From Proteromonas lacertae (lineage: Eukaryota), in assembly GCA_002245135.1 (NCBI GenBank), contig NGBS01001160.1:310001-374000 (forward strand): a stretch of 64,000 nt of DNA. The letters run 5' to 3'. Numbering within the stretch: position 1 is the first letter of the stretch; each line of letters starts with the position of its first letter. A program made the translations under genes and the position numbers. Below the pieces are notes generated by a model, which saw only the letters and a list, made by a program, of their open reading frames with translations, was not told the origin of the DNA and searched no databases. Shown here piece after piece: positions 16,973 through 64,000 of the stretch.

Positions 16973-18170
16973 ATGAATCAGGATAATCAAAATAAAAATC
17001 AAGATAAATTTGAAATTGGTAAAAGAATTTATACTGAAGAGTATGGAGGATCTAAACAAAGTTGGCTTAATTTCTTTGTTGCAAAGATTACTTTGAATAT
17101 AGTGTGTGGGTGGTTTCATATAATATTTTTATTGTTTGTATTTTCATTCTACAGCAAGATAGTCTTAAGTATATTTATTGCTGTCTATTTTATTAGCATT
17201 ATTCATTATCTTGGTAGGATCAGTATTTGTTAAACCCAAACTGCATTGGGATGCATTTATTAATAGTTGGATGTTTAAAACTTGGAGAGAATACTTCAAT
17301 TTGTATTTTATAATTATTATTAAACTCTTTTAGCTCATATGTTTTGTTAGAAAAATTTCCAAAAGGTGAACATGTTTTATATGCTGAATTTCCACATGGA
17401 GCGTATGTTTATAGAATTATTTAACAAACATAGTATTCCTTTAAGCTTAATGGTAACTCAAAGTATTTATGATGATTTACATGATATTCCATCACTTATA
17501 TCTTTTTTAAAGAATTACCATTTATAATAATATTTTCATTAATTTCTCTTTTAAGGAACAACAACTAAAAGTGCATTAATGACTCCCGGTTGGAGACATT
17601 TCTTCTCATGGTTAGGTTGTGTAGAAGCTAAGAAAGATGTAATTATTGATGCTTGTAGAGACTATTCACCAGCTATTGTAGTAGGAGGAATAGCTGAGAT
17701 GTTTGAACCACAACATGATTCTGAAAGAATTATTATTAAAAATAGATATGTATATATATCTATAATACTTATTATTATTATTAGGGTTTTGTACAATGTG
17801 CAATATTAGCAGGAGTACCCATTGTTCCAGTATATCACTTTGGACAAACACAAATGTTTCAATTTGGACCTCATTTCTTGCAAGGTATATCTCGTAAGTT
17901 ACAAACATCTATTGGTATTCATCATAATAAATATGGATTACCATTCCCATCACAAGTTGAATTAATGCCTGTAATTGGTAAAAGAATTATGGTTAAAAAA
18001 GTATATAATATAAATATAGTAAATAATCATATTAGATGAGTAAGGATGATGAAGGATTTAGAGAATATGTTCAGGAAATACATAATCAAGTTGTAGAACA
18101 ATTACAGGAAATGTATGATAAATACAAGACTATATATGGTTGGGAGAATAAACCTCTTATCATTGAGTAA
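16973..18170 (+). CDS. DGAT2/MOGAT-family acyltransferase
   Basis: AEFPHG, TPGWRHFFSWLG, VVGGIAEMF, VPIVPVYHFG. Multiple short introns, including a non-canonical one at 17498-17554. Confidence 0.9.
17498..17554 (+). other. Putative U12-type intron, AT-AA termini (57 nt)
   Basis: ATATCTTTT 5' site and TTTTCATTAAT branch-like sequence ~11 nt before the end. Removal keeps the frame and the normal PH..TP spacing of DGAT2 proteins; read-through hits TAA. Confidence 0.7.
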
Positions 18171-18328
18171 ATAGAAAGTATTAGTTAAAATACTCTTATC
18201 TTAATTCTGTTTTTGTTAGATTTAAAACTATAAATACATATACACTTCATTAATAATAAGGATATTTTTAAAGTATTAATTTTTATATATTACAAAATCT
18301 AAAATGGTTTTGTTATGAGTATCCACTT

Positions 18329-20009
18329 CTAATGATATTTTGGAGGTGCTACAACATCTTCAATACCATCCAAAGTAGAATTTCTTCTACCTCTCCCTCC
18401 TGAACCAGCAAAAGGATCTAATGAATCAAATGTAGATGGTACTCGATGAGGTTTAACATTAACAGGAGCTGCTGGAGTAGTATTCATTCCAGGAGCAACC
18501 ATATGTGGAGCACCCATTCTTACAAAATTATCTAATGGATCATAACTATTACTAACACCGCCAGCTGCATTATTCATTGACATACTCATACCTCCACCAT
18601 TCATTGACATACCACCACCACTATATCCTTGATTCATTGACATTCCTTGATTATAACCACCCATATTCATTCCTTGATTCATATTCATAGCACCACTACC
18701 TGGATATCCTTGATTCATGTTCATATTCATATTCATATTCATATTCATACCACCTCCACTATATTGTTGATACATCAATCTCTCAGCATCCATACTCGAT
18801 TGTCTTCTTCTTCCTCCTTTCTTAGTCTGTTTCACCATTCCAGGCATACAATATACATTTAGACTATCATATCCATTGGATTGTTGCATCGTCTCTGTCT
18901 TTGGTTTTGGAGCCATTGACATATTCATACCACCACCATTATTAACCATATTTATTCCTGGATAACCTGGTATTAACACTGGATTAATATTATCAATAAG
19001 TGATTCTAATCCTTGTTGTAACTCTGATGACTGTAATCCTTTATCTGGTACATCACTTATCATATCCATTAAATCATTTACATCAGTCTGCGGCTTTTCT
19101 TCTTCAGTTGGTTGATCAGTAAAATCGAAATTCATTAAATCAACATCACCTCCACTTTCTTCTTCTGGTGCTGGTGGTATAGATTCTGTTTCATCTGCTA
19201 CACTTTCAGTTTCTGTGTCTGTATCATTATCACTCACTGGTGTATCAACTACAGATGGTGGAGCTAGTTTTTTTACAACGGGAGCTGTTCGTCTTTGCAC
19301 TGGTTTAACTGGAGCTGGTCTAACTGGTACTACTTGTTGTTGTTGTGCAGCTGCAGCTGCAGCTGCATCTGCATCTGCTTTGGCTTTACTGGCCCTGTTC
19401 TTTTTATGTTGTCTATTCCATAATATTCTTTGGCTTGGAGTCATATTTGGTGGAGGTCTATCTTCTTCATCTTCCTCTTCTGCTTGTTGTGCTGGTGGTC
19501 TATCATTAATTTTTATTCCATCTATTGTATTAACTACTTTGGCATGACCTGTAGGTGGTGGTTCCATCTTTGAAGGAATTGGAGCTTCAGGATTAAATGT
19601 TGGATCTACCCATTGCTTTCTTTCATATTTAGCACGAATGAATTTTTCCAATTCTTCCATTGTACTTTGGTCAGTTGGTCTATTGAAAGTTGCTGGTAGT
19701 TTTCTTTCCCAGTAAGAATTTGCTTTTACATTACCCCATTTTTGCATTGTTTTTACTTCCTTTGCTGTCCAGGAATCTAAAGTGGTTGATCTGACAAAAG
19801 AGATGTGTACTCCGAGTTTTCTGTGTATACCTGAACATTTAATACATATAAAAACTCCTAAATTACTTGAAGCCCATCGAGGTGCTATAATATAACATAT
19901 AAGACTTACATTTTGAGTGACAGTCAGCACATAACCTATTTCCTTCTTGTTTTAGCAAGTCTTGTAGAATTTTTTTGAATTTATCTTGCAATGCTTTATC
20001 CTTATTCAT
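18329..20009 (-). CDS. ArfGAP (SMAP/AGD5-like) with Met/Asn/Gly-rich C-terminus
   Basis: CADC (exon 1) + PRWASSNLGVFICIKCSGIHRKLGVHISFVRS...FIRAKYE. One short intron near 19886-19910. Confidence 0.93.
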
Positions 20010-20105
20010 ACTACACAGATATCTTATTAAATAAATTCTATTAGATCTGTCAAATTGACCTGATCTTTTGTCAAATGTGGTAATTAGAACCACTCTTTTT
20101 TTAAT

Positions 20106-21862: not shown

Positions 21863-21960
21863 TGTTGATAGTTTATTTTATTTGTTTTATATATGTTTTG
21901 ATTGTTTTACAATCCATTTTTCAAATAGTGTTTGACTACGGTTTGAGACAACGGATTGAA

Positions 21961-24861
21961 ATGTTTTATTTTTATCGATTTCTGGTTGTAATAATAGGAA
22001 TATCATCTGTATTTTCTGCTAACTGGGCAGAAATAAGTGGATCATATGGTCAAAACGTAGCAATTCCTGCCTCTAGTGTTTTCATGCCAAGATCAGGAAG
22101 TGCTGCTGTAGTAATTCCAAAAACACCTCGACCACCTGGAGATAGAAGTGATTCTGATGAATATTATGATAGAGTGTTTTTATTAGGTATATTTCTTATA
22201 ATATTTGTTTCTAGGTGGAGATACATATGATGAAACTACTCTTGAGGGTGATTACACTAATGATGTATTTTATACAAGAGGAAAACAATGGCACATTTAT
22301 CAAAGTCGAATTGAAAAGAATCAATGGGGAGAAAACATGCCAAAAATTGTATCATATGCCCAATGGAAATTGGTAAGTTCCAATAGTTATGTCACACTTG
22401 GATTATCATATGATGACTTAATATCTTGTTTTGCTGAAACTACCTTAGAAAGACCAGAAATACCACTAGGTAATTGTACAGCCACTAAACATATAAGAAG
22501 AACAGCAGCATGGTTACCAAGAAGAGATGGAACTGCTGTTTATTATAAAGATTATGTATATTTTTTTATTAGATTTATTTTGTATAGATATATCTAATGG
22601 GTGGAAGAGGCAGAGGAGGTGAAGACATGCCCAAAGGTTGGGAATATACCCACGGTGGCTTTTACAATGCAAATTTTGGTGATCATAAAATATGGAGAGA
22701 AGAAACACGATTATTGAATGATGTATGGAAGAGTAAAGATGGTAGACAGTGGGAATTAGTAACTCAAGGATGTCATGTAGTAACTAAAGACTTAGTATAT
22801 GGTCCAGGAGATAATACAACACAATGTATTACTAATAATCAATGTAAAGGTAATTCAGAATGTTTAACATTAAGTAATGGTAGTAGACAATGTGTATGTA
22901 AAATGTGGAGTAAAAGAGAAGGTATGTTTAGTATAGTTTATAATGATTATATTTGGGTATATGGTGGTATGACCCAAGTACAGAAACATGTCTGTGGTAA
23001 TAGAACGTGTGGTGGTGATTATAGGAAGTATATGAATGATATATGGAGATCAGATAATGGATATGAATGGGAATATATGGGAAATGCACCTTGGTTGCCT
23101 AGAGCTGGACATAGTGTGGTAATTCATAATGAATTATTGTATTTGATGGGTGGAATTACTGGTGATGATGAGTATAAATATTATATATATATATATATAT
23201 TGAATATATAGTGATGTTGATAATGATCATTTCTTAAATGATTTTTGGGTAAGTGAAAATGGTGTAAATTGGACTGAAATTATCACTCCTCATTCATATA
23301 CACCTCGAGCATATTTTGGTGCTGGTTCTACCTATGGTTTCTTGTATATTTATCATTATTAATAATATATTGATATTAGAGTATTAGCTGCAGGTCATAC
23401 TGATAATTTAAAGCCATTAAGAGATGCATGGGTATGGGATTCAGAAGATTGGGTTCAAGATTATGGTAATGATACTTTTGGTGAATATTATTTAGCTCCT
23501 TATGATGATATAGAAAGAATGCAATCATTGACTACTGAAGAGTATAAGTACTTACACAGTGAAGGAGTTAATACAATAGAACAATTGGCAAGAATATCAT
23601 TAGATAAAAGTAATATATTAATGGAGAAAATTCCTACAATTTGTGATGAAAAGACTAAAGCATATCGTATAGTAAAACAATGTTCATTAAATAAACAAAG
23701 TTATGATGGTGAATCAATGCAATATTGGGATGCTAAAGTAGTTACTGATGCTTATGTATCAGTCGATGATTATGATGTATATGAAAGACAGAAAAGAGAA
23801 AGATTAAGTTTTGAAATGAGTGATAATCAATGTCTATATCCTTTCATTATTATTATTAATATATATATTTAGTATATTCTTTAATTTTATCTTTTTTTTT
23901 TACAGTCACTGATGAAGAAAGAGATATGTATGGTTTATCACCAATTAATGATATTAAAACAGCACCAATAGATACAGTATGTAAATGGCAATTCTCATCA
24001 AGATCACATGTAGTTGGCGTTGTATTGAATGATGATTTATATGTAATTGCTGGATATAAAGGACATGGATTAGGTCCTTCCAATTCAGTGTGGTATAGAC
24101 GTATGTATTATTCTAATTAACATTTGTATAGAACATAAACCACCAAAAGGTCAGTTCACTAAAACACCTCGTAATAAACATGGTGACCATATATTCCAAT
24201 TCAAATGTGATGAAGATGCTTGTTTGTATGAATATAGAATGTGGAAAATGAAGAATGGAAAGTTTGATAAATATATAAGACAATGGACTGTTACTGTGTA
24301 TATATATAATATAATATATTTATAAATTAATTAATATATAGTGATACACTTGATTTTTCAGATTGGGATCTTGATCGAGGAGATTATCACTTTGAATTTA
24401 GAGCAATTGACGCTTCAGGTAATAAAGATACATGTCCAGATGATTGTATATTAGGAAGAACATATTATGAATGGACTTATGTACCTCCTTTCCCATGGTG
24501 GTGGATATTAGTAGCTTTAGCTATAGTTATAGTTTTACTAATGCTCTATTATTGTTACGTTAGATATAGACAAAGAAATGAAGCTTTACAAAGATATGCA
24601 TTAAGAAGATTAAAACCAAGATTTGAAAGGATGCAGAAAGAGAAAGGTGGAGATGCTTTGGATTGGGATGAATTTAGAGATACTGCAAAAGAGATTGCTG
24701 CAGAGAAGTTGGTTGATCCTGCTGTAGAAGAAAGAAGAGCAAATGCATTGTATGATGAACTAACTCCAGAAGAAATAGCAAGACGAAAACAGATGGAAGA
24801 AAGAGAAAGAATGGTAATAGCTAAAAATACACATCCAGTTTTACCTTTAAAAATAACATAA
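21961..24861 (+). CDS. Type I membrane protein with Kelch/galactose-oxidase-like repeats and a Cys-rich segment
   Basis: Signal peptide, repeats such as PRAGHSVVIHNELLYLMGG and NDVWKSKDGRQW, TM segment WWILVALAIVIVLLML, cytoplasmic tail. Many short introns. Confidence 0.8.
23836..23903 (+). other. Putative U12-type AT-AC intron (68 nt)
   Basis: Perfect ATATCCTTT 5' site, TTCTTTAAT branch-like sequence, ends TAC. Splicing gives CT|A (Leu) in frame with ORF 23926. Confidence 0.82.
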
Positions 24862-24969: not shown

Positions 24970-27833
24970 CTATAATCTTCTTGCTGGAGAACTATTTGAC
25001 ATTCTACGAGGAAGATAATGTTCATTACTTATTAATGATAATTTGTAATTATAAGCTTCTTCTAAATCAAGAGCTTTCTGTAATCTGGCTTTAATAATAG
25101 GAACAATTGAAGCTAATAATGGTGTGATATTCTCATATGAAACAAGACGTTTGGGACATTCTAATTCACAGCATTTGTATAACTGACACAAATACATATA
25201 AATATCTTCCAATACACTTTTATTCTTGCTTTCTTCAGCTGTAGATCTTAATGAAGATAGAGATTTTGATTTGTATTGTTTAACCATAATATGATATGAT
25301 TTTAATAAATCTTCATACTTCTCTTGATAGTATTTAGTATTCTATCAACAATATAATAACAGAATAATATAATATAGTATATACCTCTTGTAATTCATTG
25401 ATATATTTTTCATCTTTTTTAATTTGAATCTTTAAATCTTCATTTTCATCAGTTACACTATTCAATTTTATCTTTTGAATTGTTGGACTTAGCGTTTTAC
25501 CAGTTTGATTAATACTACTCTTTGTTGTTGATCTTAATTGAGTTTTTAAATCATCATTTTCATCCTTTATTATTGATAATTGGTTTATTTTCTTGATCAA
25601 TTTTGAGAGTGTTACTTTCATTTCATCTTTCTCATGTGTAAACTCTTGAATTTGATTCTTCAAATTCTCATTCTCTTTCATTAATTCTTCTTTTTCTTTA
25701 CTATCTTTTACTATTTTACCTTTTTTCTCCATTGTATCATCATCATCATCATTATTTTCTTCTTCTTCTTCACCTTCATTCTCTGAAATGATTTGTTGTT
25801 GTTGTGGTGGTTCATCATTACTATTGCAGTATAATTCAATAACACCATTATATTTCAATTTCAAATCTTCATATTCAAGATGTAAACTGGCTAATTCATT
25901 CTTTAATTGATTATTCTCTTCCATTTTTACATCCAATAAATTACTCATTTTTTCATTTCTCTTTTGGAATAAAGATACTTTTTCCAATAACACTTCCATT
26001 TCACTATCTCTACTTTGTTTGAAGATTGGAGAACTTGTTTCTATTGCATGATTTAATCCACTATAATATCTTTGAAGTTTCTCTAATTCATCTTTAATAG
26101 TTGTATTTTCATTGCGAAGTGAAAGAATAATATTCTATATATATTAACAATTATTATTATACTTTATATTCTTTTTCTTCATAATCATAAATATTCTTTA
26201 ATCTCATATGTTCTTCACCCAATTTTTCATTTTTTTCTCTTTCATCTCTTAATTGTGTATAACACTTCTTCAATTCTTCGTTTAATGATAATATATTCAT
26301 CATCTCATCATGTTGTATATCTCCATTAAATCCATTTCCTTCTGGTGATGATTGAGTTGTTGTATTGGGAGATAATGTTAATAACTGTTGTTGTTCTAAC
26401 TGTTTAGGTTTAGGTTGGATTTGTTGTTGTTGCTGGATTTGTTGAAGTTGTTTCTAACAATTACAAATATATAATAATAATAATTGATACATTTAATTGA
26501 GTATTGATATTATGTAAATTAGTAATTGTTTGTTCTTTAATCAGCAATTGTGATGATATTTCATTAATTGTAGTTGTCAAATGTTTCTAAATCAATAAAT
26601 CAATAAAAATAACAAATACATTCTGTTGTTCTAAATCTTTAATATGACACTGATGAACACTTTCTTCTAATTGATTTTCATCTCGAGATAAATCACTTGT
26701 ATTGGTTGTAAAACTATTATCTTGTTGTAGTGACTGTATCTGAAACTCTAATTCAGCTTGAATATTCTATTATATATATATATATAATAATAATAATAAT
26801 ACTAGTAATTCAGATATCTTATTCTCATTTTGGTTATTCATTTCTTCCAATTCTTTTATTGTTTGATTTTTCTCTTCTATTATCTTCTATTTTATATATA
26901 TATATATAAATATAAATATAAATATATAAATATATACATCAGATTTAACATCTACATGTTGTTTCAATGTTATTACTTGTTCTTGCAATTCTCTTATTCG
27001 TATATTATCTTTAGCAATAATATCGGATATTTGTTGCTTTAATTTATCGATTTCAAGTTCATAATCGGATGATATTCTTTCTACCTTTGCTTCAAATTCT
27101 CTCTACAATAATTATAATATTTATATACTTGCACAGTTTGACGGTAATTGAATAAATCCGTTTCTGATACTTTTTGATTCATTGGTTGGTGATGATGTTC
27201 TAGAATAATCATGTAATGTTTTGTTTAGCCTTTGATTCTCAATTTCTAATGATTCATTTCTCTTTTGAAGTTCTTGTACTAATTACATAATAAAATGTGA
27301 TATAAATATACATTGTTTTTTGGTTTTGTTTAATTCCATTTTTAGATCCAAATTCTCAGCATGAAATATTTGCAACAACTTTGTTTGTGATTCTCTAGAA
27401 TGATATTCTACCATTTTCCAACACGGCTAATATTTATATATAAACTCGTTCAATATACGAGCACTAGATGAACTTTCAAATGATAATCTTCCTATAATAA
27501 ATAAAAAATTCAAACAATACTTGCTTGATCTTCACCTGGAGTAGTATTTACCTAATGTAATATGATATAATAATACCGATGGTCTTGCTTTTGTTTCTGA
27601 ACAACTTCTATTAATTGGCTTTGATAAACGAATATCTGAAGGTTTAATTGAAGGTGCTGCATAGCTGTTTAAAATAGCTACAGAATGATACATAAATATA
27701 ATATACACTCAGGAGAGTGGATTGTATTATCTAAATTAACAGCTCTCATTCTCAATTGATTAGCAAATATTTTATCATCCATAGTAACTGTTGCTAAATA
27801 ATCATATAGAAAAAAGATACATTGGTTATTCAT
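24970..27833 (-). CDS. Long coiled-coil protein, many short exons
   Basis: ATG at 27833 followed by about 13 GT-AG introns. E/K/Q/L-rich heptad exons include ORFs 25334-25999 and 24970-25287. Confidence 0.7.
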
Positions 27834-27901: not shown

Positions 27902-27974
27902 TGGTGGGGGCGGGGCTCGAACCCGCGACCTTTGGCTCATAAGACCAAAGCTCTACCGACTGAGCTACTCCACC
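27902..27974 (-). tRNA. tRNA-Ile(UAU), intronless
   Basis: GGTGGAGTAGCTCAGTCGGTAGAGC-TTTGGT-CTTATGA-GCCAAAGGTC-GCGGGTTCGAGCCCCGC-CCCCACCA folds as a cloverleaf with anticodon TAT. T-run terminator downstream. Confidence 0.95.
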
Positions 27975-29849: not shown

Positions 29850-30920
29850 TTACATATCACAATGATATTTAACTACATCTAATGATTTTTCACTGTATGA
29901 GTGTATTATTGGAGGAATACTTCCATCAATATTATAAATAGTATTATTCACTGGTACTGCGTAAGATTTAACATCGAAACGAACTTCAAGATGTAAAGTC
30001 CAAGCAACACCAAAGCCATTTAAACTAACATAAAGAGGAAGAGTTGAAAAATCATATAAATACAACATTAGATTAAATAATGCTTGATCAGTAGTTTTAA
30101 AATATCTTTTTAACATAAAATTAACCAGTTTATTATAAAAATATGTTATTTCTTTTTCACTACCATAGATTGCACCTCCATTTATCAATGCATTATCTAA
30201 ATATTTATATGCATATTTAAATCCATATAACCATACTATATCATAATACGAATTAGCCATTTTAAAGTTGTATGTTTGTTCTACTAAATATACTCCTTCT
30301 CCTATATTCCAATCAAAGGGATTTGCTTGGAAATAGATATCTCTCACATCACAACTTAGATAATATTTGTATTTATAACCATATATATTTAACCAAATGT
30401 TGATTAAATACAATCTTATAGTTGAGTATTTATTATAATAATCTCCCTCATTTATGTGTGATAGAATATAAGAAGAATTTACTGGATATTTGGTATTATT
30501 TTGAGAATAATAAGGAAATGATTTTGTTAAATTAACATATTCTATTGAATATTTTCTCAAAAAATGAAAACTTTCTTCTTTACTATTTTCATCAATTAAC
30601 AATAAAACATCTCCTTTATAATATCTTCTTAAACTCATTATAAAATATTCATATTTATCATATTCATATCCTAAAGCTACACCTATCACAATTGAATTGT
30701 AAATGGCATTATATTTCCTTTCTTCATATTCTAAATATTTTGCATGCATTTTGCTTTCATTTTCACTTTGAATATGGATTTTTACTTCATCTTGAGTAGG
30801 ATATTTTGGTATTGAAAATTTGTATGGCTTTATTATTTCATATTCTACATATTCGTACAAATAACATTCAACTGGATAAATTATATAGAAAAAAATCAAA
30901 TATACATAAATAAATTGCAT
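29850..30920 (-). CDS. Secreted/type II GT-A-like glycosyltransferase (paralog of 57604..58698)
   Basis: Intronless, hydrophobic N-terminus, FIMSLRRYYKGD, CDVRDIYFQANPF (DxxD), NGGAIYG, TDQALFN, IIHSY. Confidence 0.75.
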   Translation of the reverse strand: MQFIYVYLIFFYIIYPVECYLYEYVEYEIIKPYKFSIPKYPTQDEVKIHIQSENESKMHAKYLEYEERKYNAIYNSIVIGVALGYEYDKYEYFIMSLRRYYKGDVLLLIDENSKEESFHFLRKYSIEYVNLTKSFPYYSQNNTKYPVNSSYILSHINEGDYYNKYSTIRLYLINIWLNIYGYKYKYYLSCDVRDIYFQANPFDWNIGEGVYLVEQTYNFKMANSYYDIVWLYGFKYAYKYLDNALINGGAIYGSEKEITYFYNKLVNFMLKRYFKTTDQALFNLMLYLYDFSTLPLYVSLNGFGVAWTLHLEVRFDVKSYAVPVNNTIYNIDGSIPPIIHSYSEKSLDVVKYHCDM

Positions 30921-31002
30921 TTTTAATAATTTATGAAACGGGTATATTTTTAATCATTAGTTTAAAGCCACATATAAATATATTAAATTATTAACAGACA
31001 GA

Positions 31003-32031
31003 TTAATTCATAAAATCATTTACTCTCTTTATTATAAAGTCTGTAAAATTATTCATGTCATTAAAATTTTCAACCATTTTCTTTTTGTTACAAGTAATAT
31101 TAATATTAATTTTGAATTTCAAATAATAGTTCCCATTTTCATGTGACACAAATGCATAATTTATCAATTTCAAATATCCAGAGAATCTTTTATCAGGATG
31201 TTTTCCTGATATATATATGACAGGTGTATTCATCGATATACAGGGTAAAATCGTGTGTAAATTACTTGTTAAAACCAAAGTTGATTTTTCATATATTTTT
31301 AATAATCTATATGCTTCATTGAATCTATCATAATGAGCGGTAGAATGTTTGAAATTCTTATTTAAATACATTATTTCACTAAAGTTGTAATACTTTAATA
31401 CTCTTTCATTCAAAAAATCCCATATTACATTTCCATCAATACAATTATCACAATTAACAATACATAATATTGTATCATTGATTTTATTTGCATAGTTATG
31501 ATATGATAAGCCCAACGTAAGTGTTAGACATCCACTAAAATATGCTTTGATTCCTAACGATTTTAGATAATTCATTGTTGATATATCTCTACAACCTATT
31601 GGTTCATGTTTTCTTAAATACCATAATGAAGAGTTGAATTTTTTATGTTGATTATCAATATGATAAGAAATATATAAAGGCATAATTCTCTCGGATGGAA
31701 AATATGTAGAATTTTGTAGATTCCACCATGCATTCATTATCATTTTAACTGGAGGACCATTATAATATCTAATAAAATCTCTATCAATATATATAACTTG
31801 CTTTCTACCACAAAAATATAACGAAGCAATAGATTGTATATAATCACCTAAATTTACATAATCAAATCCAGAATAAACAGAATCATACTCTTCTGTTTTA
31901 TCATCTCCATATTTGTATATCATTATTCCACAATATTCTTTGTTACTATCGCTATAATAATTTTCCTTACACTCAATACACTTTAGAATGATGAGAAAAA
32001 TGAGAATAAATTTTGAATGAAACGGATTCAT
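31003..32031 (-). CDS. Polysaccharide pyruvyltransferase family protein
   Basis: Intronless. NLGDYIQSIA, EPIGCRDISTM, YFSGCLTLTL and VLTSNLHTILPCISMNTPV match bacterial PS_pyruv_trans-type motifs. Signal-like N-terminus. Confidence 0.88.
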   Translation of the reverse strand: MNPFHSKFILIFLIILKCIECKENYYSDSNKEYCGIMIYKYGDDKTEEYDSVYSGFDYVNLGDYIQSIASLYFCGRKQVIYIDRDFIRYYNGPPVKMIMNAWWNLQNSTYFPSERIMPLYISYHIDNQHKKFNSSLWYLRKHEPIGCRDISTMNYLKSLGIKAYFSGCLTLTLGLSYHNYANKINDTILCIVNCDNCIDGNVIWDFLNERVLKYYNFSEIMYLNKNFKHSTAHYDRFNEAYRLLKIYEKSTLVLTSNLHTILPCISMNTPVIYISGKHPDKRFSGYLKLINYAFVSHENGNYYLKFKININITCNKKKMVENFNDMNNFTDFIIKRVNDFMN

Positions 32032-32040
32032 TTTATTGTA

Positions 32041-33267
32041 AATTGGGATGGCAATTTCATTCTATTCACTTTTGTTTTGGTTGTTTATATTCAATTTTAC
32101 ATACTGTTATAATGTTGACATTCCTGACAAGATTATAATAACAGCTGACTCAAATGTGTTTAAAATGGTAGAAAACTTCTATAATGAAGTGATATTGAAG
32201 TTTAAAGTTCCAAATTTTAGTGTGATAGTATGGAATAATTCATCCTATGAATTTTATAAAAAACACAAAATTCCAGTCGAAAACTCTCCAATTCCTACAG
32301 ATGATACAACAGCATATATTTAGTCATATGAAAAAACGTTTGTGATTAAATCAAAATTACGGAATGAGATAATCTTATATTATTTAAAACAAAATTTAAC
32401 AATATTAAACATGGATTCTGATTTATTCTTCTATAGAAATCCTTTAGAATTACTAAACTATATAAATGTTGATGATGATATAGTTTATCAATGTGATAAT
32501 CCTCCTTTGTGTAATGAGATGTGTTATGGATTATTTTATGTAAAACCATCAAAACCATCAATTAAACTATTTGAAAGAACAATAAATCTGGGAAAGATAA
32601 GTCTGCTTACTATGATTTATTCAGAACAACGATTGATGAATTTATTACTGAAATATGGTAGAATTGCAAATTTGAAATATTCAACGTTTTCTAAAGATGT
32701 TTTCCCTCAAGGTAATGAATATTTTGATGGTTTAGGAGTATTTGTAGATGATAAAAATATTCGAAATGTGATTGGATTTCATAATCATCATATTGCTGGT
32801 AGTCATTCCAAAATCTATCGATTTAAAGGAATTGGGAGTATGGAAGAATGATGAGAATGAATATTATTCATCAAAAACAAGAAAATATATAAAATATTCA
32901 ACAATAATTAAATCAAATTATAAAAGTGATTATGAATTATTGATGATATATTTAATGAATTTAGGAAAAGAGTTAAATCGAACAATAATATTTCCTAGAT
33001 TTAGTCATAGTATAAATAATGAAAGATATATTACAAATTTTATAAATTTTTGGAATATGAAATACTTTGAAGAAAGATATGGATTAAACTATCGAGAGAA
33101 TATATCTTTTTTGTTGTTTAATATAAATAAATAGAATAGTTTAGTTAATATTTGAAAGTATTTCTATTGAATGAATTAGTTCCAAAAGAAGTGAAAGAGA
33201 ATGTGAAAGAAATTTGTGATGAAAATGTAGATGAAATGAAATTATTAAATTCGTATTCAGTTTTATC
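32041..33267 (+). repeat. Direct repeat copy 1 (~1.2 kb), near-identical to 42244..43471
   Basis: Long identical stretches from aattggg upstream of the ATG to tcagttttatc. Confidence 0.95.
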
Positions 33268-33367
33268 AATAAATTATGTTATAAGAACTATCTCTGTTGA
33301 AGTAGTAAATAATTATATACATTATCTGTTGAAAGACAATATTTGGCAATATAGTTATATTTTCTAA
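32048..33367 (+). CDS. Nucleotide-diphospho-sugar transferase (GT77-like), copy 1; interrupted
   Basis: LNMDSDLFFYRNP (DxD), CYGLFY, SEQ, FHNH, KIYRFKELGVW. In-frame TAG at 32321-32323 and frameshift near 32828. Putative AT-AA intron 33102-33157. Confidence 0.75.
33102..33157 (+). other. Putative U12-type intron, AT-AA termini (56 nt)
   Basis: ATATCTTTT...TTAGTTAAT...GAAA|GTA joins REN to VFLLNELVP. The intron contains an in-frame stop. Confidence 0.7.
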
Positions 33368-33530
33368 ATGTTGTAATTTGTTGAGATAAAAATTGGCAGA
33401 AGGTATTTCTATTTATTTTAATCAAATAATGTTATTTATTAATAGTTTTTCATTCAATTTATTGAATTATTCATTTTTAAAACATTCTGAAACGGATAAT
33501 TTTTATTATAATTTGGAACTTTTTGTTTTA

Positions 33531-35571: not shown

Positions 35572-35610
<39 letters not shown>

Positions 35611-38714: not shown

Positions 38715-38752
<38 letters not shown>

Positions 38753-43568: not shown

Positions 43569-43709
43569 TTTTATATAATATAGTAACCTAATTTATTATC
43601 ATTATTATTATTATTATTTGCTTATTCTCATCAAATCTTCTGTTAATTATCATATTAATAAAAATGTATATTTTCATTTTATGACATTGTCAATGTCAGA
43701 ATTATAAAA

Positions 43710-45733: not shown

Positions 45734-45812
45734 TAATAACCAATTAATGTTATTTTGTTATAATTTAACTACAAAAATATTAAATAAAATCAATTTTACA
45801 TAACTGACTATC

Positions 45813-47869: not shown

Positions 47870-47940
47870 CAGATTAAAAAATTTCTAGAAGGCTTGTTGA
47901 TGGTTTGATTCAAAAACATTTTGAACAAAAAGTATTATAA

Positions 47941-50005
47941 TTAATATAAGATATTTAATATTATATCCTTAACTACTAAATACCAAATAATGAACTGTGA
48001 AAGACTTAATCCTGAAGTGAAAAATGACAAAAATCCGTTTAATATAAAGTGTCTTTGGTGCATTAATTCCTTATATGGCTTATACAACAATACCAGCTTC
48101 AATATTTGTGAAATGATAAAGAATATATTTCGCTTATACATATATTCTAAATGATACATTCTACTGAAAAACACAATGTATATTATTCCTGGAAGGTAAA
48201 TAGACAAATAATTCAATGAGTTGGTTATATTTGTATCTAAATCTTGAACAAAGTAACTATATTTAAACGGATAAAATTGTCCAAATATTGGAATTGATAT
48301 AGAGAATATCTTTTTACCATAATTTAGAATTGTAAATGGAAAAACTGGTTGAAATAACACAAAAACAAATCTAAATAATCTATATCTTGGATTTACATTG
48401 AATAATATTGTTCGATAGAAGTAATAATATAATAATGAGGAGATGATAGGAATATTACTTAAGAACAAAGGTAAACTTAAAATCTTAATAAATGAAGTAT
48501 GATATAATATCAAATCAACTTTATCAAATTCCAAATCACTTTTTAATTCACCTCTGCTTAGTAATACATAATACATAATGTTAGGAATAATATAGGATAA
48601 TAATAAAACAACAAAATACACTTTCAAATATGTATTTCTTAGTTGATTTGGTGTTCCAATAAGTTTAGTAAATTGAATAGCTTTTCCTTGTGGGAAGTAG
48701 ATATTTTCATCATATGATAATGTAAATAATTGAGTATCATTATTACACTTATTATCAATATTACACGAGATTATAGATATAGAATGATTATAAATAGAAT
48801 GATTAATACTATGATAGTAATCATAGTTTATTACATATAAGGGACTTTCATTGTTTTTATTATTGTTATATTGTATTAACTCATTATCAATATAAATATC
48901 AATAGATTTAATAGGTTTCATTGAAAATAAGAAAAATCTTATTTCATTATAATCAACTGTATGATTTGTATGTCTAAATGGGAATAATGCATTAGGTGGT
49001 GATGTAATTATAGTGATTGGACATTCATATGTTTCATTAAAAGAAATATCTTTAAATCCAATTCTTCTTTGATCAATAGCAATTATACGATAACTATACA
49101 AACATATATGTAATTATTATACTGTTTAATAAAACCCCAATCTAATGCAGCTAAATCCCAATTTGGATATTTATCTTTATTGTAATACTATTCATTAATA
49201 AAAGAACATTAAAATATACAAATAAATTCTTTCCAATTGTATCATGAACATGTCCAGATAATACCAAATCAATTTCATTCTTATTTATAACATCTCTTAA
49301 ATCTTCACTTCTATTTTCAGGTGATAAAGGATTTAAAAACATTATAGGATGATGAGTTAACATGACTTTAAAATCAGCTTGCTTGTTACTTATTTCATCT
49401 AATAATACACATTTATTATGATCGCTAGAACCATAAATACATAATGGTTCGATTGAACACTTTGGAAATGTGGAGAAAAATGTTGAAAATGCATATTTTG
49501 ATGATGGAGTGGTTATATCAAAACCATACATGATTGATCTATTATACTTTCCACTGATTGAATATTTGTCGAAATAACTGTTGTATTCTAATTCAGTAGT
49601 ATATGTATCATGATTACCACGAACATCAAACCAGAATTCTGGATTTGTCAAGTTGTTATCTTCTAATCCATTTCGATATAATTGCCATTGTGATTCAAGC
49701 TGAATATCTATAGATAATTAGATACTATTTAAATACTTGGCTCATAATTATCTTTACTATCACAACTATCTCCTGTGTTAATAACAAACTTTGGATTAAT
49801 CTTTGGAACTACTTCGCTTAAGAATTTTCGCCAGTAATTGTCTTGCTTATCTCCTGATACGCCTCTCAAATGTATATCTGAAATGTGAATAAACCAAAAA
49901 GAATCATCTTCATCTATTCACAATAATGCAATTGACAATACTCTTTAGGTGATAGTAATCATGGCACAAACAGAATGAGAAAAAGAAAAGCAATATAAAA
50001 TTCAT
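47941..50005 (-). CDS. TMEM62-like metallophosphoesterase (paralog 3, tandem with paralog 2)
   Basis: ATG at 50005 with signal peptide, FIHISDIH, NTGD, DVRGNHD, THHP, SGHVH. TM-rich C-terminus. Confidence 0.85.
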
Positions 50006-54874: not shown

Positions 54875-55508
54875 TTGTGCGCCGTTGTCATAAGTGGCCA
54901 TTTGTCAACCAGACACTTTTAAAACAAACTAAATGTATATTCTTACTTGTCTTGATGAAAAATTGTTACTTTTATACTTACTTTGTTATATGACCTACCT
55001 CTGCAGTATACTTTTTTGTTAATATAAATAGTTTGAATATTTGATGCCGTTTGTTTTCTAGAAATTTTTGAAGCAGAACTAAATGCATATTTAGCTAATA
55101 TAGACTGAAATACATTAGCTGAAATGATTAGAATGTAATAATTATTAAATCTTTCTATATAAAAAAGAAATGTAAAAAGTAGGCTTAAGTGAGGCTTGAT
55201 TATGTATTTTCTTTTTTCATTTTAAATGTCTTATGATCTACATTAAGTTGTTCTAATCATTTCAGCTAATGTATTTCAGTCTATATTAGCTAAATATGCA
55301 TTTATTCTGCTTCAAAAATTTCTAGAAAACAAACGGCTCAAATATTCAAACTATTTATATTAACAAAAAAGTATACTGCAGAGGTAGGTCATATAACAAA
55401 GTAAGTATAAAAGTAACAATTTTTCATCAAGACAAGTAAGAATATACATTTAGTTTGTTTTAAAAGTGTCTGGTAGACAAACGGCCAACTATGACAAACT
55501 GCGCACAA
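54875..55508. repeat. Long inverted repeat (arms 54875-55133 and 55251-55508, 117-nt spacer)
   Basis: The right arm is the reverse complement of the left. The core is perfect apart from two 1-nt bulges, and mismatches cluster in the outer ~35 nt. Confidence 0.97.
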
Positions 55509-56347
55509 CAATAGAAGATCATCAGGAACAATTTGATCATCTTAGGTACCAGTCTATTGTACATAATATCTGTACACTAGATCTCCAGTTTTTTCTATTC
55601 TAATCTCTCTATTTAGAGAGAATACTTGAAAACAAATAAAATAAACACAAGCCAGGTTTGAACATTTTTTCATGTTTTATAAAATTTGAGCACCTGCCTC
55701 CTATAGGAAGCTAGGTCTTATTTTTGTTAATTAATTAATAAACACTATTATTTTTTAAACTGTTTGACTTATTTACTATCTGAATAACTATCTTAAGCTC
55801 TATTTCAATCGTTTATCCCATAAAAACAATTTAACTAAATCATTAAGACATATTTATTTATAACTAACTGATAATTGAACCTTTTTCATAAAAAACAAAT
55901 CATTCAAGTAAATTTTGGCAATCTTGATATCTATTCGAGGAAGTCAACATATTTTACATCTCCATAGCTTCTACTATTGCTAAATTATCACCTTATTGAA
56001 CATAATTTACTTACATTTATTAAACTACTAGCCATTGGATAAGTTAAGAATTTAGAATTATCTACTTCTCGTTTTATAATCATGAATTTTGATAATTTGC
56101 TTACTAAATCATTTCTTATATCTACAACGAAGTTATCTCTATTGAATTGTAATTGATATACTTCTACTAATCTTTTCATATATTGTAAAACTACTTCTTT
56201 TATATTCAATTTACCTCTCATGATTTAGCTTTGAATATCTCAGCTTTTATAACCATTCTTTTACATCGATAGAAAATGTTTAAGTGAATAATGGAAGGCA
56301 CAATGAAAGGCACAAACAGTTCTTTATTCATCATCCAAATAAATTAA

Positions 56348-57555
56348 TTAACCTTTAAGATGATTTAAACTATATTCTAGGATAAATCCTATTTGTTTCA
56401 ATGACATTGTCATATTATCATTATTATGATTTTGAAAATAGGATATACATATCCATTATACAATGACCGATATAAAGTTGGCTTATTTTTAAACTTATAC
56501 TTATCATCATATCCTTCATCATATGTATTAGGATTAACATTATGAAATAATGAAAATAACAAGAAATGTTTATAATTTAATGAATAACTATAACACATAA
56601 AATCAGTTATAAAAAATGTTCCTATACATTCAATGATTAAACATTTTGATGATAAAATCCATATCATATTCGTTAAACCAGATCCATGAACACTTATTAT
56701 TATTTTAGATTTCATTATTGATTCAATTTGTTCTTTAGGGACTTTTATCTTCAAAATATATTTCATTGTAATTATATTTCATTGATTTGATCATTTCTTT
56801 TATCATCTCTAGATTCGTTATACTTCTGATTCTTCCTTTCACTTTTCGACTTATTATTGATATTAAATTTTCTTTTTCTTTTACATTTTCTTTATTTATT
56901 TTATGTATTTATCCTCATCTCGATATGTCGACCTTTATTATAATTACGAAATATTCCTACCAAATCACCAATTTGCACTTCGAATATAAATATGAACAGT
57001 TTTATAACATAATAAATGATTTTTGGATTTTCTTAATAGTTTAGATATTTCTGATTGAAATGATATCTTAAATGGTTTATTATAATTATTTATCATCATT
57101 TTCAACATCATATTATTATAGGGAATTGTAGATTGTGGATTAAAATCAGCCATTATAAGATGATTCATTGGAGGATATTTATTATCATTTTGAATATTAT
57201 ATAAAAACATATTATCCAAAAAATGAGATATCATTTGATTAACATGTGATGTTGTTAAATAAATTTCTTCATTTGAATATTCATAGGATGGATTTCCTAT
57301 CAGAAAATTCGGACCAAAAATAAATCTCCAATGATGATTATGTAAGTTATTTATTATTAAATTGTATTCATTCATTTCTTTTATTGACATTATTAATCTT
57401 CCCCAATAATCATCTTCTTTTCTTGTTATACAAATATTGTTAGCAGTTATCCAATAATTTCCAGATTCTTTTACCAAGTCTTCATGAAAATCAATTGAAC
57501 TATATTCACAGTATATATATTTAGAGAGAATGAGAAAAATCAATAAAATATTCAT
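56348..57555 (-). CDS. GT61/DUF563-like glycosyltransferase, frameshifted
   Basis: Signal peptide, HFLD, IISRK..R.ITN, FEDKSPKEQI, IISVHGSGLTNMIW, IIEC. At least three frameshifts (near 56970, 56738, 56435). Confidence 0.75.
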
Positions 57556-57603
57556 TTTAATCAAATCAAATCATGAAACGGATACATATTTAATTAAAAA
57601 GAA

Positions 57604-58698
57604 ATGTTAAATTTACGACTAATCTTTACATTATTTTTCATAACTTACTTAAAACCGCAAACTTCACTTTTTATTTTTAATTATTTGTTAGTTATATTGT
57701 TAAATGTAAAAAGAATAGAATGTAAAGAAATAGAAGTGTATGTTACTCCTCATAGGGAATTTAAGAAGTATGATGAAAAACTATATATTAGAAACAATAT
57801 ATCATATCTAAAATATGAATCTGATGAAATAAAATCAAAAGATTGTGTTGTGATATCTTTAGCTTATAGCTATACATATAAGGATATTAGCACATTTATT
57901 CTATCTCTTAGAAAGTATTATGAAGGTGACACTATTCTTTTCATAAAAGAAGAAGATTATTCTTCCTATTCTGAATATATTGATAAATATAAATTAGAAT
58001 TGATTAATATTACATATAATTCTCCATTTTATTCAAATAATAATTCGCTATACAAATTTAATCAATCAGAATTATCAGATATTCCACTTTATTCATACAA
58101 AAATTACTGGCCAACATTTCGTTGGTTCATTTTCGACAAATGGCTAAGTAAATATGGATATCTATATAAGTATTATTTAATTTGTGATGCAAGAGATGTA
58201 ATATTCCAAGACAATCCATTCAGATGGAATATTAGTGAAGGAATATATTTTGGTGAACAAACAAGAGGATTTGAAATTAGTCAAAATCAACCTAATACTG
58301 AATATATGTTTTATTACAAATATGGATATAAATATGTTGATAATCTATTATTAAATGCAGGAGTAATGTTTGGTAAAAGAAAGACAATAATTGATTTTTA
58401 TCAACAATTTACAGGTTTTTTAAGAGAAAGATATATAAATACAATTGATCAAGCAGCATTGAATTATTATCTATATTCATATGGATATAAACACTTTCCA
58501 GTGTATATATGTCAAAATGAAAATGGTCCAATTCGAACTTTGCATATAGATTTCATGCTAAATAAATCAAATGCTTATCCTAAAAGTGATAATTACATAT
58601 ACAATATAGATGGATCAAAACCTATGTTAATTCACCAATATGACAGAATGATTAATAAATATGAAGAATATATTAAATATCACACAAAAATAGTATAA
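57604..58698 (+). CDS. Secreted/type II GT-A-like glycosyltransferase (paralog of 29850..30920)
   Basis: Intronless. FILSLRKYYEGD, CDARDVIFQDNPF, NAGVMFG, IDQAALNY, LIHQYDR. Confidence 0.78.
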   Translation: MLNLRLIFTLFFITYLKPQTSLFIFNYLLVILLNVKRIECKEIEVYVTPHREFKKYDEKLYIRNNISYLKYESDEIKSKDCVVISLAYSYTYKDISTFILSLRKYYEGDTILFIKEEDYSSYSEYIDKYKLELINITYNSPFYSNNNSLYKFNQSELSDIPLYSYKNYWPTFRWFIFDKWLSKYGYLYKYYLICDARDVIFQDNPFRWNISEGIYFGEQTRGFEISQNQPNTEYMFYYKYGYKYVDNLLLNAGVMFGKRKTIIDFYQQFTGFLRERYINTIDQAALNYYLYSYGYKHFPVYICQNENGPIRTLHIDFMLNKSNAYPKSDNYIYNIDGSKPMLIHQYDRMINKYEEYIKYHTKIV

Positions 58699-58728
58699 TA
58701 GTAATTGTTATGTTTTTATTCTTGTTTA

Positions 58729-61700
58729 TTAAATGCATAAATATGCAATTATTAATAATTCTATAACAATTATCCCTATCATTATCACAGCAACTCCATT
58801 TGAGAAATATCTTACAGGAGATCTAATAAAATTAAGAAATGTCTGAAGTGTCTATAAACAAAAGAATATAACAAGAATAATAATACATTTGATTTTCTAC
58901 TAAATAATTCCATTTTAATCCAAAACAAATTTCTTATTTTACTCAATATTAAAATCATCCTATTTCCATATTGATTTTTACTATCTTCATTTTCTAATAA
59001 TTCATTCAAATATTTATTTGCCAATGAATAATCAATGCCAACACCATATCCATTACTATACATATAACTCAAACTATAAGCACTTTCCAAATTACCAAAT
59101 TTATAAGCATGTAAATACATTTCCAATGCTTTTTCATAATAACTATGTGTTATATTTGTTTGCTTATCAATGTATCCTTTGTAATAAAGATCTCCAAGTC
59201 TAACACAATTGATAATATTACCTTTAATACATGATCTGTTCAAATAACTTTCACTTAAATTGAATAACATTTCTTCATTATTAATCAAATTCTGATTGAT
59301 TATTAAGTACTTATTTGATAAAATAAATCCACTATTGTGAATTGAAACATCAAAACCAAGTTCACTACTTTCAATATAATGTAATAAACTACTTACATAA
59401 TCACCATCAATATATCTTTCAAATCCTCTTCTTATAATCTCAGATATTTTACTGTGATAATAAGCAGTCGATTTCAAAAATCTATACATAATGATGTAAA
59501 ACAAACACAATATACTTAAGTGAATTTTCAGCATTTCTTTTAAAAAATTTTCCTTTATACAACTGTTCTCCCATGACAAAACAACCTGAAAATGATTGAT
59601 ATTCTAATGCAGCTCTTAACATATAGTTATATGCTTTATCATAATCACATCTAGTTCCAACACAATTCAAATACATAAAACCAGCATTGTATAATGCTTC
59701 TCCACTATTATACTCCACAGCTTTTTCAAAATATTCAAGAGCTTTAGTGAAATTTTGTTCTACATCTTCTCCTTGATAATAAATATATCCCAAACCATTA
59801 AAAGCTCTTGTTAAATTCTATTAATCATATAAATATGTTTATACCTTCTTTGCAGCTTTGTTATAATATTCCATTCCAGCAGTTACATTCTTTTCTACTC
59901 CTTCTCCCTAAATGATAATAAATAATCTAAATACTTTAATTAATAATCCAGCTAAAGCTACTTCACCAACTCCATTTCCTAGATTTGCAGCTTGTCGATA
60001 ATAATTATAAGCAATATTCTGATTTCTAATTAAACCTCTATTCCCAAAATAATATAAATCACCTAAAGTCAACATTGAATCAACATCACCCTATTATTAT
60101 TATTATTATATTCACAATTATTTGTATATACATTTGTAGCTCTAAATTTATGATATTGAACATATTCATCATCTTCTCCTCTTTGACCTTTATCAATATC
60201 TTTCACTGTATCTTCAGTAATCAAATCTACCTCATTGCGAGGTTGTTCTCCAACTGTTTCAAAAAGATTTCTTGATTCTTTTGCTACTTCATAATAATAA
60301 AAGAGTGTAGTTTCAATAGCATTAGGTTTATTCTCATAATAATTTGCTAAATAAAGATAAGCTCCATTATATCCCTGTAATGCAGCATAGTAAATACTTC
60401 CAATATTTATTGGTATATTATCTATAAAACTATGGAAAATTAGTTATACACAAAACATATTTCAATTTAGTCAATAACCAAACTGATCTTCCATCTCCAT
60501 TATTTGCTGCTGTTTTAATCAATTTATATCCTCTTTCAATATCTGGTTTAACCCAATACGTTTCAGCTGATAATATATAAAAGAAATATATATATACATT
60601 TAATTCCACATTCTCCATATAATAATATTTCACCTAATAATCCAATTGCTGGAGTAAAATTGTATGAAACAAGACTTTCTAATTCACTCAATACATATTC
60701 TGGATCATTACAGGATTTATACTTTTCTTTGACTGTCTATTATATTACTATAATATTGAGTTTTATACATCAAATGATTCTATTTGCTTTGGTAATAATG
60801 ATGGTTCAACATTGAATTTGTTTGTACAAAGCTGTATGTTTGATAATTCATCAGAATGCTTAGATCTATCCAATCAAAATGTAAGAAATAAATACAATTC
60901 ATATTGGTAATTACAATTTATCATCGAATAAGATAATACACTATTATAAACATGAATATATCCAATATATCCAGTTATTCCTAACATATATGGACTTCCT
61001 CCAATCATCATTGGATCTCCATTTGGTATAACATTTGGTATTATGAAAGAAACATCTCTCTTTCCATTTACATAGCTTGTAATTAAATATGATGAATTGT
61101 TATTGTAAATATCAACAGTAAGAGTATAGTAATACCATTGATATGGTTCAAATATATAATTTGAATTACTTCCTGTATCATATGATTCATTATTTGTTAA
61201 TCTAATAATAGACTGCCATATATCTGGATAAATAAAGAATTCAGAAATTGTTCTATAGGTTGTACCATTACCTTTGTAGAACAATATCTTATAAATTGAA
61301 TCAGCTGGTTTATTCAAATACAACCAAAATGACATTGACCAACCATGATTATCCTATATATATTATTATAATCATCATAATAATACAGGAAAGGTAGTGT
61401 TTGGTAATGCTATATACTGATTTCCATTAAATGTAATTATACCTTCATTACTGTAAATCGATGGGTATGGACAAATTATATCTGATTTTGATGAATTATC
61501 AGATGATAGAATGTATTGATTTGCAGATGTGATAGTCAAAAGATTAGGTGATGTATAAACTACAAAGTATGATATAAATATATCAATATACTATAGGTAT
61601 TTGTGATATTTTGTAGAATAAAATCAATATAATATTGATTCTCATTCAATATTCTTATTTCTTTATATCCTTTCTTTGGTATAACATATCCTTGACAAAA

Positions 61701-62430
61701 AACTTCATTTTCATATTCCTTATAATATTTCTCTGTTATATTCACTACAGTAATATGTAAATTTTCACCACTTTTAAATGAAGAAACAACTTCATTATTT
61801 CCATTAAGGAATTGTATTTTCAAAGTATCATTATCATCCCATACTCCTATATAGTTTATAGCAAATGTTGGATTTAAATCAACAGTATTTTGAAGTGCTA
61901 ATCTGTTATCAATGTCACTCTTAGTGAATGTATCATAATGAGTAACATTACATTTGAAAGAAATAGTGATTATATCATAATCTGTTAAAGTTGTTTTTGA
62001 TCTAGTATTTTTTATGCTAATATCACCTATTTTTGCTTCTTTATTGGGAAAATCTTCATCACATGCAATTCCTGGATAGGAAGCAATAAGATTTTGATTA
62101 TCAGCTAAATCTAATAATGGAATATAATAATTTGTTTGATTTTCTAAATAATTACTGGGATATTAAGAATACTTATATCATGAATTCTAAAGAATGCTTT
62201 CTCAGTACATTCAACTGGAACTCTTAAATTCCATGATATATTCATCGCTTCATATGCATTAACTTTCAATGGATGAATTAATTGAATATTCAAACTAGTA
62301 CTGTTTGTTATATCTAAATTAGTGAAATCACTGTTTGAAAAAGTAATTTCATCGGCCTATTATGTTATAAATACATGAAGCATACTATACAACAAGCAAA
62401 TAAAAATAAAACAATTATAGAACAACACAT
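58729..62430 (-). CDS. Secreted/type I membrane protein with LamG/ConA-like domain and SEL1 repeats (SEL1L3-like architecture)
   Basis: Signal peptide at ATG 62430, LamG-like WSMSFWLY...YVNG...IGGSP, SEL1 repeats (GYIYYQGEDVEQNFTKALEYFEKA), C-terminal TM. Many short introns. Confidence 0.78.
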
Positions 62431-62489
62431 TTCAAAATTTTCGTTGAATGAAAATATATCCGTTTCTTAATAATTAAAAATCATTTTAA

Positions 62490-64000
62490 ATGGAGAGAAC
62501 AGAAAGATATAGTTATCCCAGTTTTGTCACTATTAAAAACAGCAAAGGTGTTTTACGACCTAATGAATATTATGTATTAATATGGGTTACTTTTGAAATA
62601 GCAAAGAGATGACTTGTCTTGCAACTATAAAGATTGTTCAGAATGTAAAAATTCACCAAATGAAATTGATGGATGTATATTATATGAATAATAGGTTTAT
62701 AGATTTTGATTCAACAAAGCCAATTTTGTTTTTAGATTCAGATTTCGTTTTATTTTATCATATTATTGAATCAATGAATGACTTATTTGTAAATTCTATA
62801 TTATTGACAAGTGTTATTACAGATTGTAGATATCGTTCTAGTTCAAGAGTATTAAAGTGTTTATGTGTGTATAATGTATAGTTATATAATAATCTAATGA
62901 ATGCAATTCATAATCCTAGCAGAGATTATTTCTTAGTTTTTGAAAATCAATATAATAACAAGATATATCATTTTTATTTTCTTATTTTTATTTCTTTTCT
63001 TTTAACTCAATTATTCAAGGAAATATGTTTTGGAAAAGATCCAATTGAATTGAGAAAACATCAATTTGAAACAGGAGTTGCTTGGTATATCAACCATATT
63101 CAAAAACAACTTCCAGAGATGAAATTCATTGTATTATCTATGAATGAAGATATTCACATTGATAATGCTATAAAATACAATGTATTAGTATTGATGATAG
63201 TATTTGAATAGATTGCAGAATATGTATCTACTTTTGTAAATATTCCAAAAGAAATAAAACAGTTGTATTTTATAAATGTTTGATATATTTGTTAAATAGA
63301 GCAGATGAAATAGTTTATGAAAGGAAATGTTACTTAGAATCATTACAGAATAAAGAACAAAATAAATATGAAGTAAAGGATGGTGAAGTCTATACTGGAA
63401 TTATAAATGTAAGTAAACATCATCCGATAGAAGCGATAGTGAAATTAGATAGAATGACAATGAATTTATCAGAAATATTGGTATTATTTTAAACTGTTAT
63501 TAAATAGATTCCAAATAGAGAAGCAAGATCAAATAGTATAAATGGTGATAGAGTAAAAGTGAAATTATATTCTAAAGAACATTGGAAATCAAAACATTCT
63601 AAAGTAATAATACCAACTGAACAAATATCAGTTGTTGATGAAGAGATTGAAAGAAGAATAAATGGAAGAGAAGATGTAATGTTAGAGAATAATCAGGATA
63701 TATTACCTACTGGATATGTTGTAGAAGTTACAAATACTGATAATAGAAGATCATATGTTTGTACAGTTGATTCATTTTCAATTACAAAGAAAGAGTATTT
63801 GATGTATGTTTTATTTATAGTTTTCTCGCTGTTCCAATGGATATAACAATACCGAAGATAAGAGTTATTTCAAGTAATGGTTCATTATTAATAGGTGAAA
63901 GAATTGTAGTAATAATCGATGAGTTTTTAGAAAATACATTTTATCCAATTGGTCATTTTACAAGAGTTTTAGGGAAGATAGGAGATTCATCAACAGAAAT
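62490..64000 (+). CDS. DIS3/RRP44-family exoribonuclease (DIS3L-like), 5' part
   Basis: EYY.RDD..C...C..C (CR3-like), PIN-like region, SINGDRVKV, PTGYVVEV, IPKIRV, YPIGHFTRVLGKIGD. Runs off the window. Confidence 0.82.
62965..63018 (+). other. Putative in-frame U12-type intron, AT-AA termini (54 nt)
   Basis: ATATCATTT 5' site, T-rich body, TTCTTTTAAC branch-like sequence 12 nt from the end. Removal deletes an implausible YHFYFLIFISFLLTQLF insert. Confidence 0.62.

Follow-up and report, generated by a model that had tools for sequence, protein, structure and literature searches.

A 64,000-nucleotide stretch of Proteromonas lacertae DNA (assembly GCA_002245135.1, contig NGBS01001160.1, positions 310,001 to 374,000, hereafter the window) contains five candidate introns that begin with ATATC and end, in most cases, with AA or AC. 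They lie in a DGAT2/DAGAT-family gene, a Kelch-repeat membrane protein gene, two copies of a GT77-like gene and a DIS3-like gene. We put at about 0.7 the probability that these are true A-type U12 introns, i.e. substrates of the minor spliceosome, of the kind found in Blastocystis, in a probably related and very AT-rich lineage whose splicing signals have been depleted in C and in which AA is the likely 3' end of two or three among the four independent loci. The window, which has a GC content of 27%, was picked for its minor-intron feature.

The letters confirm that all five candidates start with ATATC[C/T/A]TTT where the preliminary description had placed them, and the intervals it gave end in AA in four cases and in AC in one. 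Each is preceded by a T as the last exon base and has a GC content of 10-14%. The U12 donor consensus RTATCCTT is matched at eight of eight positions in two introns and at seven of eight in the other three, and C stands at donor position +5 in 5/5 candidates against 4/79 major introns of the window. The motif RTATC[CTA]TT is common by itself, with 75 matches on both strands of the window, and was therefore tested in gene context; even TATATCYTT, found 14 times, exceeds its mean of 7.4 in shuffled sequences by only about twofold, 2 of 100 shuffles reaching 14. A simple gene finder was trained on the window, where it called 95 GT-AG or GC-AG introns. When given the minor donor as well, it used 6 of the 167 available sites, five of them being the candidates above, for a score gain of 13.9. 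Nineteen decoy donors of the same composition were used 0-2 times each, eight times in total (three at the DIS3 site), and none gained more than 1.8. Since the motif was taken from the earlier finding, this control amounts to a check; it did not discover the sites blind. The sixth use of the minor donor, at 58677-58734, spans a stop at the end of a gene and was rejected. Taken with the donor motif, the decoy control makes the A-type U12 identity of the sites well supported at the level of sequence.

The ordinary introns of the window provide the background against which these candidates stand out. A curated set of 79 major introns was assembled from 77 finder calls and two introns called by hand; the removal of 18 GT-AG calls with doubtful ends inflates its shares of GTAT starts (76/79) and TAG ends (77/79). 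Among all 95 introns called by the finder, 79 start with GTAT. The major donor is thus rigid without following the textbook: just 8 of the 79 curated introns have G at +5. GTAT differs by one base from the minor donor. No candidate starts with G or ends with TAG (0/5). The curated GT-AG introns have a median length of 33 nt (range 25-58), against 54-68 nt for the candidates. The latter had been described as about twice as long as GT-AG introns; they are indeed longer, but the ratio is closer to 1.7 (Mann-Whitney p=0.0006, four independent introns), and 2/79 majors also reach 56-58 nt. Two GT-AG introns of the window, at 12496-12532 (forward strand, 37 nt) and 27794-27820 (reverse strand, 27 nt), start with GTATCTT. 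A G-type minor identity and an ordinary major one are both conceivable for them, since majors here begin with GTAT too.

The best-supported AT-AA case is the intron of the DGAT2/DAGAT-family gene (17498-17554, forward strand, 57 nt, phase 0). The gene runs from an ATG at 16973 to a stop at 18170 and has a Pfam DAGAT match; if the insert were retained, it would bring in-frame stops. A word-based protein search with a DGAT2 exon gave no match, and a search with the read-through protein returned 24 hits, of which 23 were scanned, 13 containing both anchor motifs that flank the junction and 10 lacking one. In these 13 homologues the anchors are 36-43 residues apart, and exactly 36 in six of them, which is the spacing of the AT-AA model. 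A glycine in the junction column, kept by the same model, is found in 11/13 homologues. The alternatives all disturb the protein: the GT-AG rival 17463-17555 reduces the spacing to 24, i.e. deletes 12 residues, a one-base shift replaces the glycine by arginine, a later AA gives a spacing of 31, and extending the intron by the following G, to an AG end, puts the protein out of frame. At this locus the AA end is the only one for which a normal protein is predicted, and AT-AA is well supported barring a base error.

The Kelch-repeat membrane protein gene (22084-24861) supplies the AT-AC case. Its intron (23836-23903, forward strand, 68 nt, phase 2) has a perfect ATATCCTT donor and was picked by the gene finder, whereas the GT-AG rival 23832-23905 requires a GTCT donor that occurs in 0/95 finder calls.

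In the GT77-like gene the same phase 0 intron is found in copy 1 (about 32048-33367; intron 33102-33157, 56 nt) and copy 2 (about 42251-43568; intron 43305-43360, with a perfect ATATCCTT donor), both on the forward strand, and is probably AT-AA in each. The agreement of the two copies had been taken as an argument against sequencing error. Their independence is not confirmed: the copies are near-identical over about 1.2 kb, their introns differ by one base in a pairwise alignment, and neither copy is intact as assembled, so that they count as one locus. They diverge abruptly after about 33270 and 43475, which suggests decay or misassembly of a recent duplicate. The N-terminal part of copy 2 matches Pfam PF03407 (E=7.5e-10); no GT77 homologue was found in the ESM Atlas, which returned unnamed clusters and one Nucleotid_trans cluster at 15%, or for the C-terminal part among viral contigs. 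Ten codons past the donor the frame runs into a stop, and a single downstream frame is open. In-frame A-N ends near the acceptor are at 33148 and 33151, which lie within or adjoin the branch box, and at 33157; the AG at 33139, if used, would run into a stop. For the given donor, the earliest in-frame A-N end that avoids the branch box is AA at 33157, and we regard AT-AA as the likely end. The gene finder preferred an AT end at 33151, 6 nt earlier.

The intron in the PIN region of the DIS3-like gene (forward strand, phase 2, donor ATATCATT) starts at 62965 and ends either at 63018 (AT-AA, 54 nt) or at 63006 (AT-AC, 42 nt). The disputed 12 nt, 63007-63018 (GC 0.17), belong to the intron in the first case and form four codons in the second. 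From an ATG at about 62490, the gene enters a frame (62882-63211) that is open straight across the 54 nt, and restoring the frame therefore demands no intron at all. The preliminary description held that frame restoration requires AT-AA in four introns; DIS3, where the in-frame AT-AC end at 63006 was also the finder's choice, and GT77, where the finder chose an AT end, both contradict this. The need for an intron at DIS3 comes instead from homologues. Among 110 loci fetched with a DIS3 motif, 61 were uninterrupted, 14 were unusable and 32 were distinct interrupted loci. The 39 distinct uninterrupted homologues have 16-21 residues between the anchors, against 32 if the candidate is retained, which falls outside this range, 18 with AT-AC, 14 with AT-AA and 13 with an AT-AG junction shifted two bases upstream. 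The interrupted loci point the same way as the spacing: in 27/32 of them a phase 2 AG acceptor coincides exactly with the end column of the AT-AC model. Nineteen donors were recovered at these loci, and none is U12-like. The best branch box, in turn, favours AT-AA, being placed 14 nt upstream of the AA end but overlapping the AC end. Residue similarity (0.4 versus -0.2 between the end models) and profile scores less than 1 bit apart do not discriminate. A 60-nt AT-AT model had the top profile score by 1 bit; as the profile is unable to rank ends, this was treated as noise. A word-based protein search with the DIS3 exon gave no match, searches of PDB and Pfam with the PIN region nothing useful, and an ESM Atlas search nothing credible. 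From these data we give AT-AA an even chance at this site, hold AT-AC as a tentative reading just short of that, and consider any other end improbable.

AT-AA therefore likely stands at two or three of four independent loci in place of the original four of five introns, given that the GT77 pair is one locus and the DIS3 end is ambiguous. The earlier statement that the class is mostly AT-AA shrinks accordingly in number, while its DGAT2 instance is supported by homologues. At a 4% rate, finding AA ends in one of four loci has p=0.15, in two 0.009 and in three 0.0002. The high density of minor introns that had been proposed amounts to no more than a hint: about 95 introns include 4-5 of this type (at the rate of Blastocystis sp. 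ST1, p=0.014 for four in 95). Both sets of p values overstate the case, since the window was selected for the feature. A dropped G at the AA junctions is unlikely as an explanation: frameshifts called by the finder are confined to the two GT77 copies, and 824 runs of at least two G or C in 20.6 kb of long frames keep the frame, with the reservation that these frames were selected as unbroken.

The closest known counterpart is Blastocystis sp. ST1; the comparisons that follow draw on excerpts of the papers cited. Of about 35,400 introns in ST1, 346 are reported to be U12-type, and the four minor small nuclear RNAs (snRNAs) are all reported present (PMC5608401). In its intron table, 336 introns begin with ATATCC, three with ATATCT and none with ATATCA (PMC5608401, supplementary file 32). 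We counted the ends by eye in 150 of the 336 ATATCC introns (rows 1-120 and 307-336) and obtained 95 AC, 45 AG, 7 AA and 3 AT, i.e. about 5% AT-AA, in introns of mostly 37-50 nt. The share of AT-AG in this sample (45/150) is high although an excerpt of PMC3584512 calls AT-AG disfavoured. Another account lists 253 ST1 minor introns, 77% of them AT-AC and possibly recent gains (PMC10639083). The introns of the window resemble those of ST1, as portrayed in these extracts (PMC5608401; PMC10639083), in being only A-type (5/5), longer than the majors (about 30 nt in ST1) and variable in their last base. What had been called a distinct class is thus real as a longer A-type class, but its kind is already on record from ST1, whose A-type introns likewise exceed the majors in length and vary in their last base (PMC5608401). 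Differences from the ST1 sample concern length (mostly 37-50 nt in ST1, here 54-68 nt, with 42 nt as the alternative at DIS3), the branch box (lacking CC and 10-20 nt from the end, against about 5-10 nt by eye in ST1) and the ends (AT-AA at two or three of four loci, against about 5%), while majors here nearly always start with GTAT. What is new, if it holds, is the combination of greater intron length, splice signals poor in C and a larger share of AA ends, which probably reflects AT pressure.

Comparable ends are known elsewhere. The excerpt of PMC10639083 gives AT-AA, an A-type donor with an AA end, as the commonest non-canonical U12 subtype in both animals and plants; all non-canonical ends together make up only about 4% of minor introns there, unlike in the window. 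Table 2 of PMC1557818, as far as excerpted, has 8 AT-AA among 66 non-canonical cases. Unusual density and altered signals also recall the minor-intron expansion of Physarum polycephalum, as cited in the available part of PMC10639083, with the difference that the single window can at best hint at enrichment here and showed no insertion mechanism, for which no search was made. Among the papers listed by searches of the open-licence literature, none reported a species whose minor introns are predominantly AT-AA. A search of the 64-kb window with Rfam returned only a tRNA at the gathering score and is uninformative on the minor snRNAs of the genome.

Several observations weigh against our interpretation. 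Donor position +6 departs from the consensus, being T or A, in 3/5 candidates, compared with 3/339 in ST1. A TTAAY branch-like box is present in all five introns, as first described, but it is weak evidence because it is frequent by chance, occurring in 31% of random intron-like 56-mers and in 11/79 majors; compared with the branch 9-mer TTCCTTAAY, the candidates retain the TTAAY core with 2-3 mismatches, and the core falls in range in the same 31% of random sequences. The boxes lie 13, 20, 10, 10 and 14 nt before the ends as originally drawn (DGAT2, Kelch, GT77 copy 1, copy 2 and DIS3, respectively), distances that are partly built in by the choice of ends and of which the Kelch value is long; branch-to-3' distance matters in minor introns, with an optimum of 11-13 nt according to an excerpt of PMC3584512. 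A G follows every AA end, so that an AG competes one base away, and in the ST1 sample AT-AG outnumbers AT-AA about sixfold. Both GT77 copies are broken as assembled, copy 1 by an in-frame stop and a frameshift and copy 2 by two frameshifts, and they differ by single-base indels at different places. The DIS3 intron may be AT-AC, as its spacing and the ancient intron position fit 63006 better. Finally, kinship with Blastocystis is not reflected in a full TGTTTGTT-like motif, which follows only 1/26 stops, nor in the protein matches listed (24 for DGAT2, the best 120 of 370 for Ubc12), among which no named Blastocystis protein appears.

The alternative that gains most from these points is that the introns are ordinary Blastocystis-type minor introns in which AT-AA is not enriched. 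DIS3 would then be a 42-nt AT-AC intron, as its spacing and the homology of intron positions suggest, GT77 would be decayed and unreadable in both its broken copies, and DGAT2 would be a lone AT-AA like the roughly 5% in ST1, a single such end in four being unsurprising in a window picked for the feature. Set against this are the AA end shared by the two GT77 copies with only one downstream frame open, the low probability of a second AA end among the four loci, and the DIS3 branch box, which fits AT-AA better. We consider this alternative unlikely, while finding in it the most substantial competitor to an AA-rich minor class.

Two further explanations would change the nature of the junctions. 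The true ends could be AT-AG, either through one G dropped at each AA|G junction or through a cut two bases upstream (33100-33158 in GT77, 62963-63019 in DIS3). The G adjoining all AA ends, the frequency of AT-AG in the ST1 sample, the single-base indels between the GT77 copies and the fact that the shifted AT-AG junctions are in frame all lend themselves to this explanation. It would nevertheless require a G to be lost three or four separate times, in a window where frameshifts were called only in the GT77 copies; DGAT2 offers no shifted AT, and at DIS3 the shifted AT-AG gives both the worst spacing (13 residues) and the worst score (-6.7). In addition, 153/153 A-type introns in the ST1 excerpt start exactly with ATATC, a figure limited by their retrieval through that start, which kept shifted ones from appearing. 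We judge AT-AG ends very unlikely. Least probable of all, and scarcely to be expected, is removal by the major spliceosome, the introns being A-starting variants of major introns or parts of longer GT-AG introns. GTAT donors, one base from ATAT, do dominate both the finder calls and the curated set, DGAT2 and Kelch both have GT-AG options in frame, and the DIS3 position may be that of an ancient major intron; yet the DGAT2 option deletes 12 residues of conserved spacing, and the candidates form a longer class that differs from the majors in its C at +5 (5/5 against 4/79) and its want of TAG ends (0/5 against 77/79).

Other features of the window bear on the identity of the host, which we take to be probably a Blastocystis-like stramenopile; the major introns, at about 33 nt, are of a size that fits this. 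Every called gene has a genomic stop, and TTTGTT, which resembles the Blastocystis TGTTTGTT polyadenylation motif, occurs at most 60 nt after 12/26 stops, against 2.5 in shuffles and 3 on the antisense strand, the motif having been chosen after viewing the list. For Ubc12, the best named match among the best 120 of 370 is the stramenopile Platysulcus tardus at 58%, behind matches at 83% and 68%. The 27% GC of the window matches neither of the ranges given for Blastocystis strains in an excerpt of PMC12129017, 21-23% and 39-55%. No TOR relative was confirmed in metagenome contigs, and six single-exon proteins of the window were absent from the protein collection searched. The window further includes a tRNA gene (27902-27974, reverse strand, Rfam RF00005, 68 bits), three TMEM62-like metallophosphoesterase genes (one at 11064-13087) and intron-poor clusters of glycan genes at about 29850-34413, 42251-49907 and 55954-58698, encoding GT77-like, polysaccharide pyruvyl transferase, acyltransferase-3 with SGNH, and GT61 proteins. 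At about 54900-55500, where no gene was called, an imperfect direct repeat of about 440 nt with a short inverted copy was noticed by eye.

In minor introns, U11 and U6atac read the donor and U12 the branch site. In the mechanism we propose, the ATATCYTT donor would pair first with U11 and then with U6atac, which would determine the 5' cut, and U12 would pair with the T-rich TTAAY box. The 3' cut would be set by the A at the second-last position, about 10-20 nt past the branch A, the last base being loosely read, as all four bases seen there in ST1 suggest. AT pressure would have changed C at donor +6 to T or A, removed the CC of the branch box and turned the last C into A, with the C at +5 kept (5/5). 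We infer, in short, that the C residues lost from these three places were dispensable. The recent gain first proposed, also for the glycan-island genes, stays a conjecture. Under the AT-AC reading of DIS3, a U12-type intron may coincide with an ancient position of major type, which would speak for conversion and not insertion; such a major-to-minor conversion is plausible given that the major donor here is GTAT, and the argument rests on one ambiguous site. A more far-reaching proposal, which we find doubtful, is that AT-AA is the main minor-intron end in a Blastocystis-related lineage where minor introns make up 4-5% of introns, the cut falls after AA despite an AG one base on, and some minor introns arose by major-to-minor conversion, DIS3 being an example.

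If AT-AA is not common, the window adds another Blastocystis-like genome to those in which this intron class is known. Should a U12-type intron occupy an ancient major position, it would bear on the idea that conversion proceeds only from minor to major, assumed in the excerpt of PMC10639083 and questioned in that of PMC11347168. If AT-AA is common, such introns would be missed or wrongly annotated by gene finders and minor-intron surveys built around AT-AC or GT-AG, and the genome would offer a natural setting in which to test how the 3' cut is chosen by the minor spliceosome when AA and AG lie one base apart.

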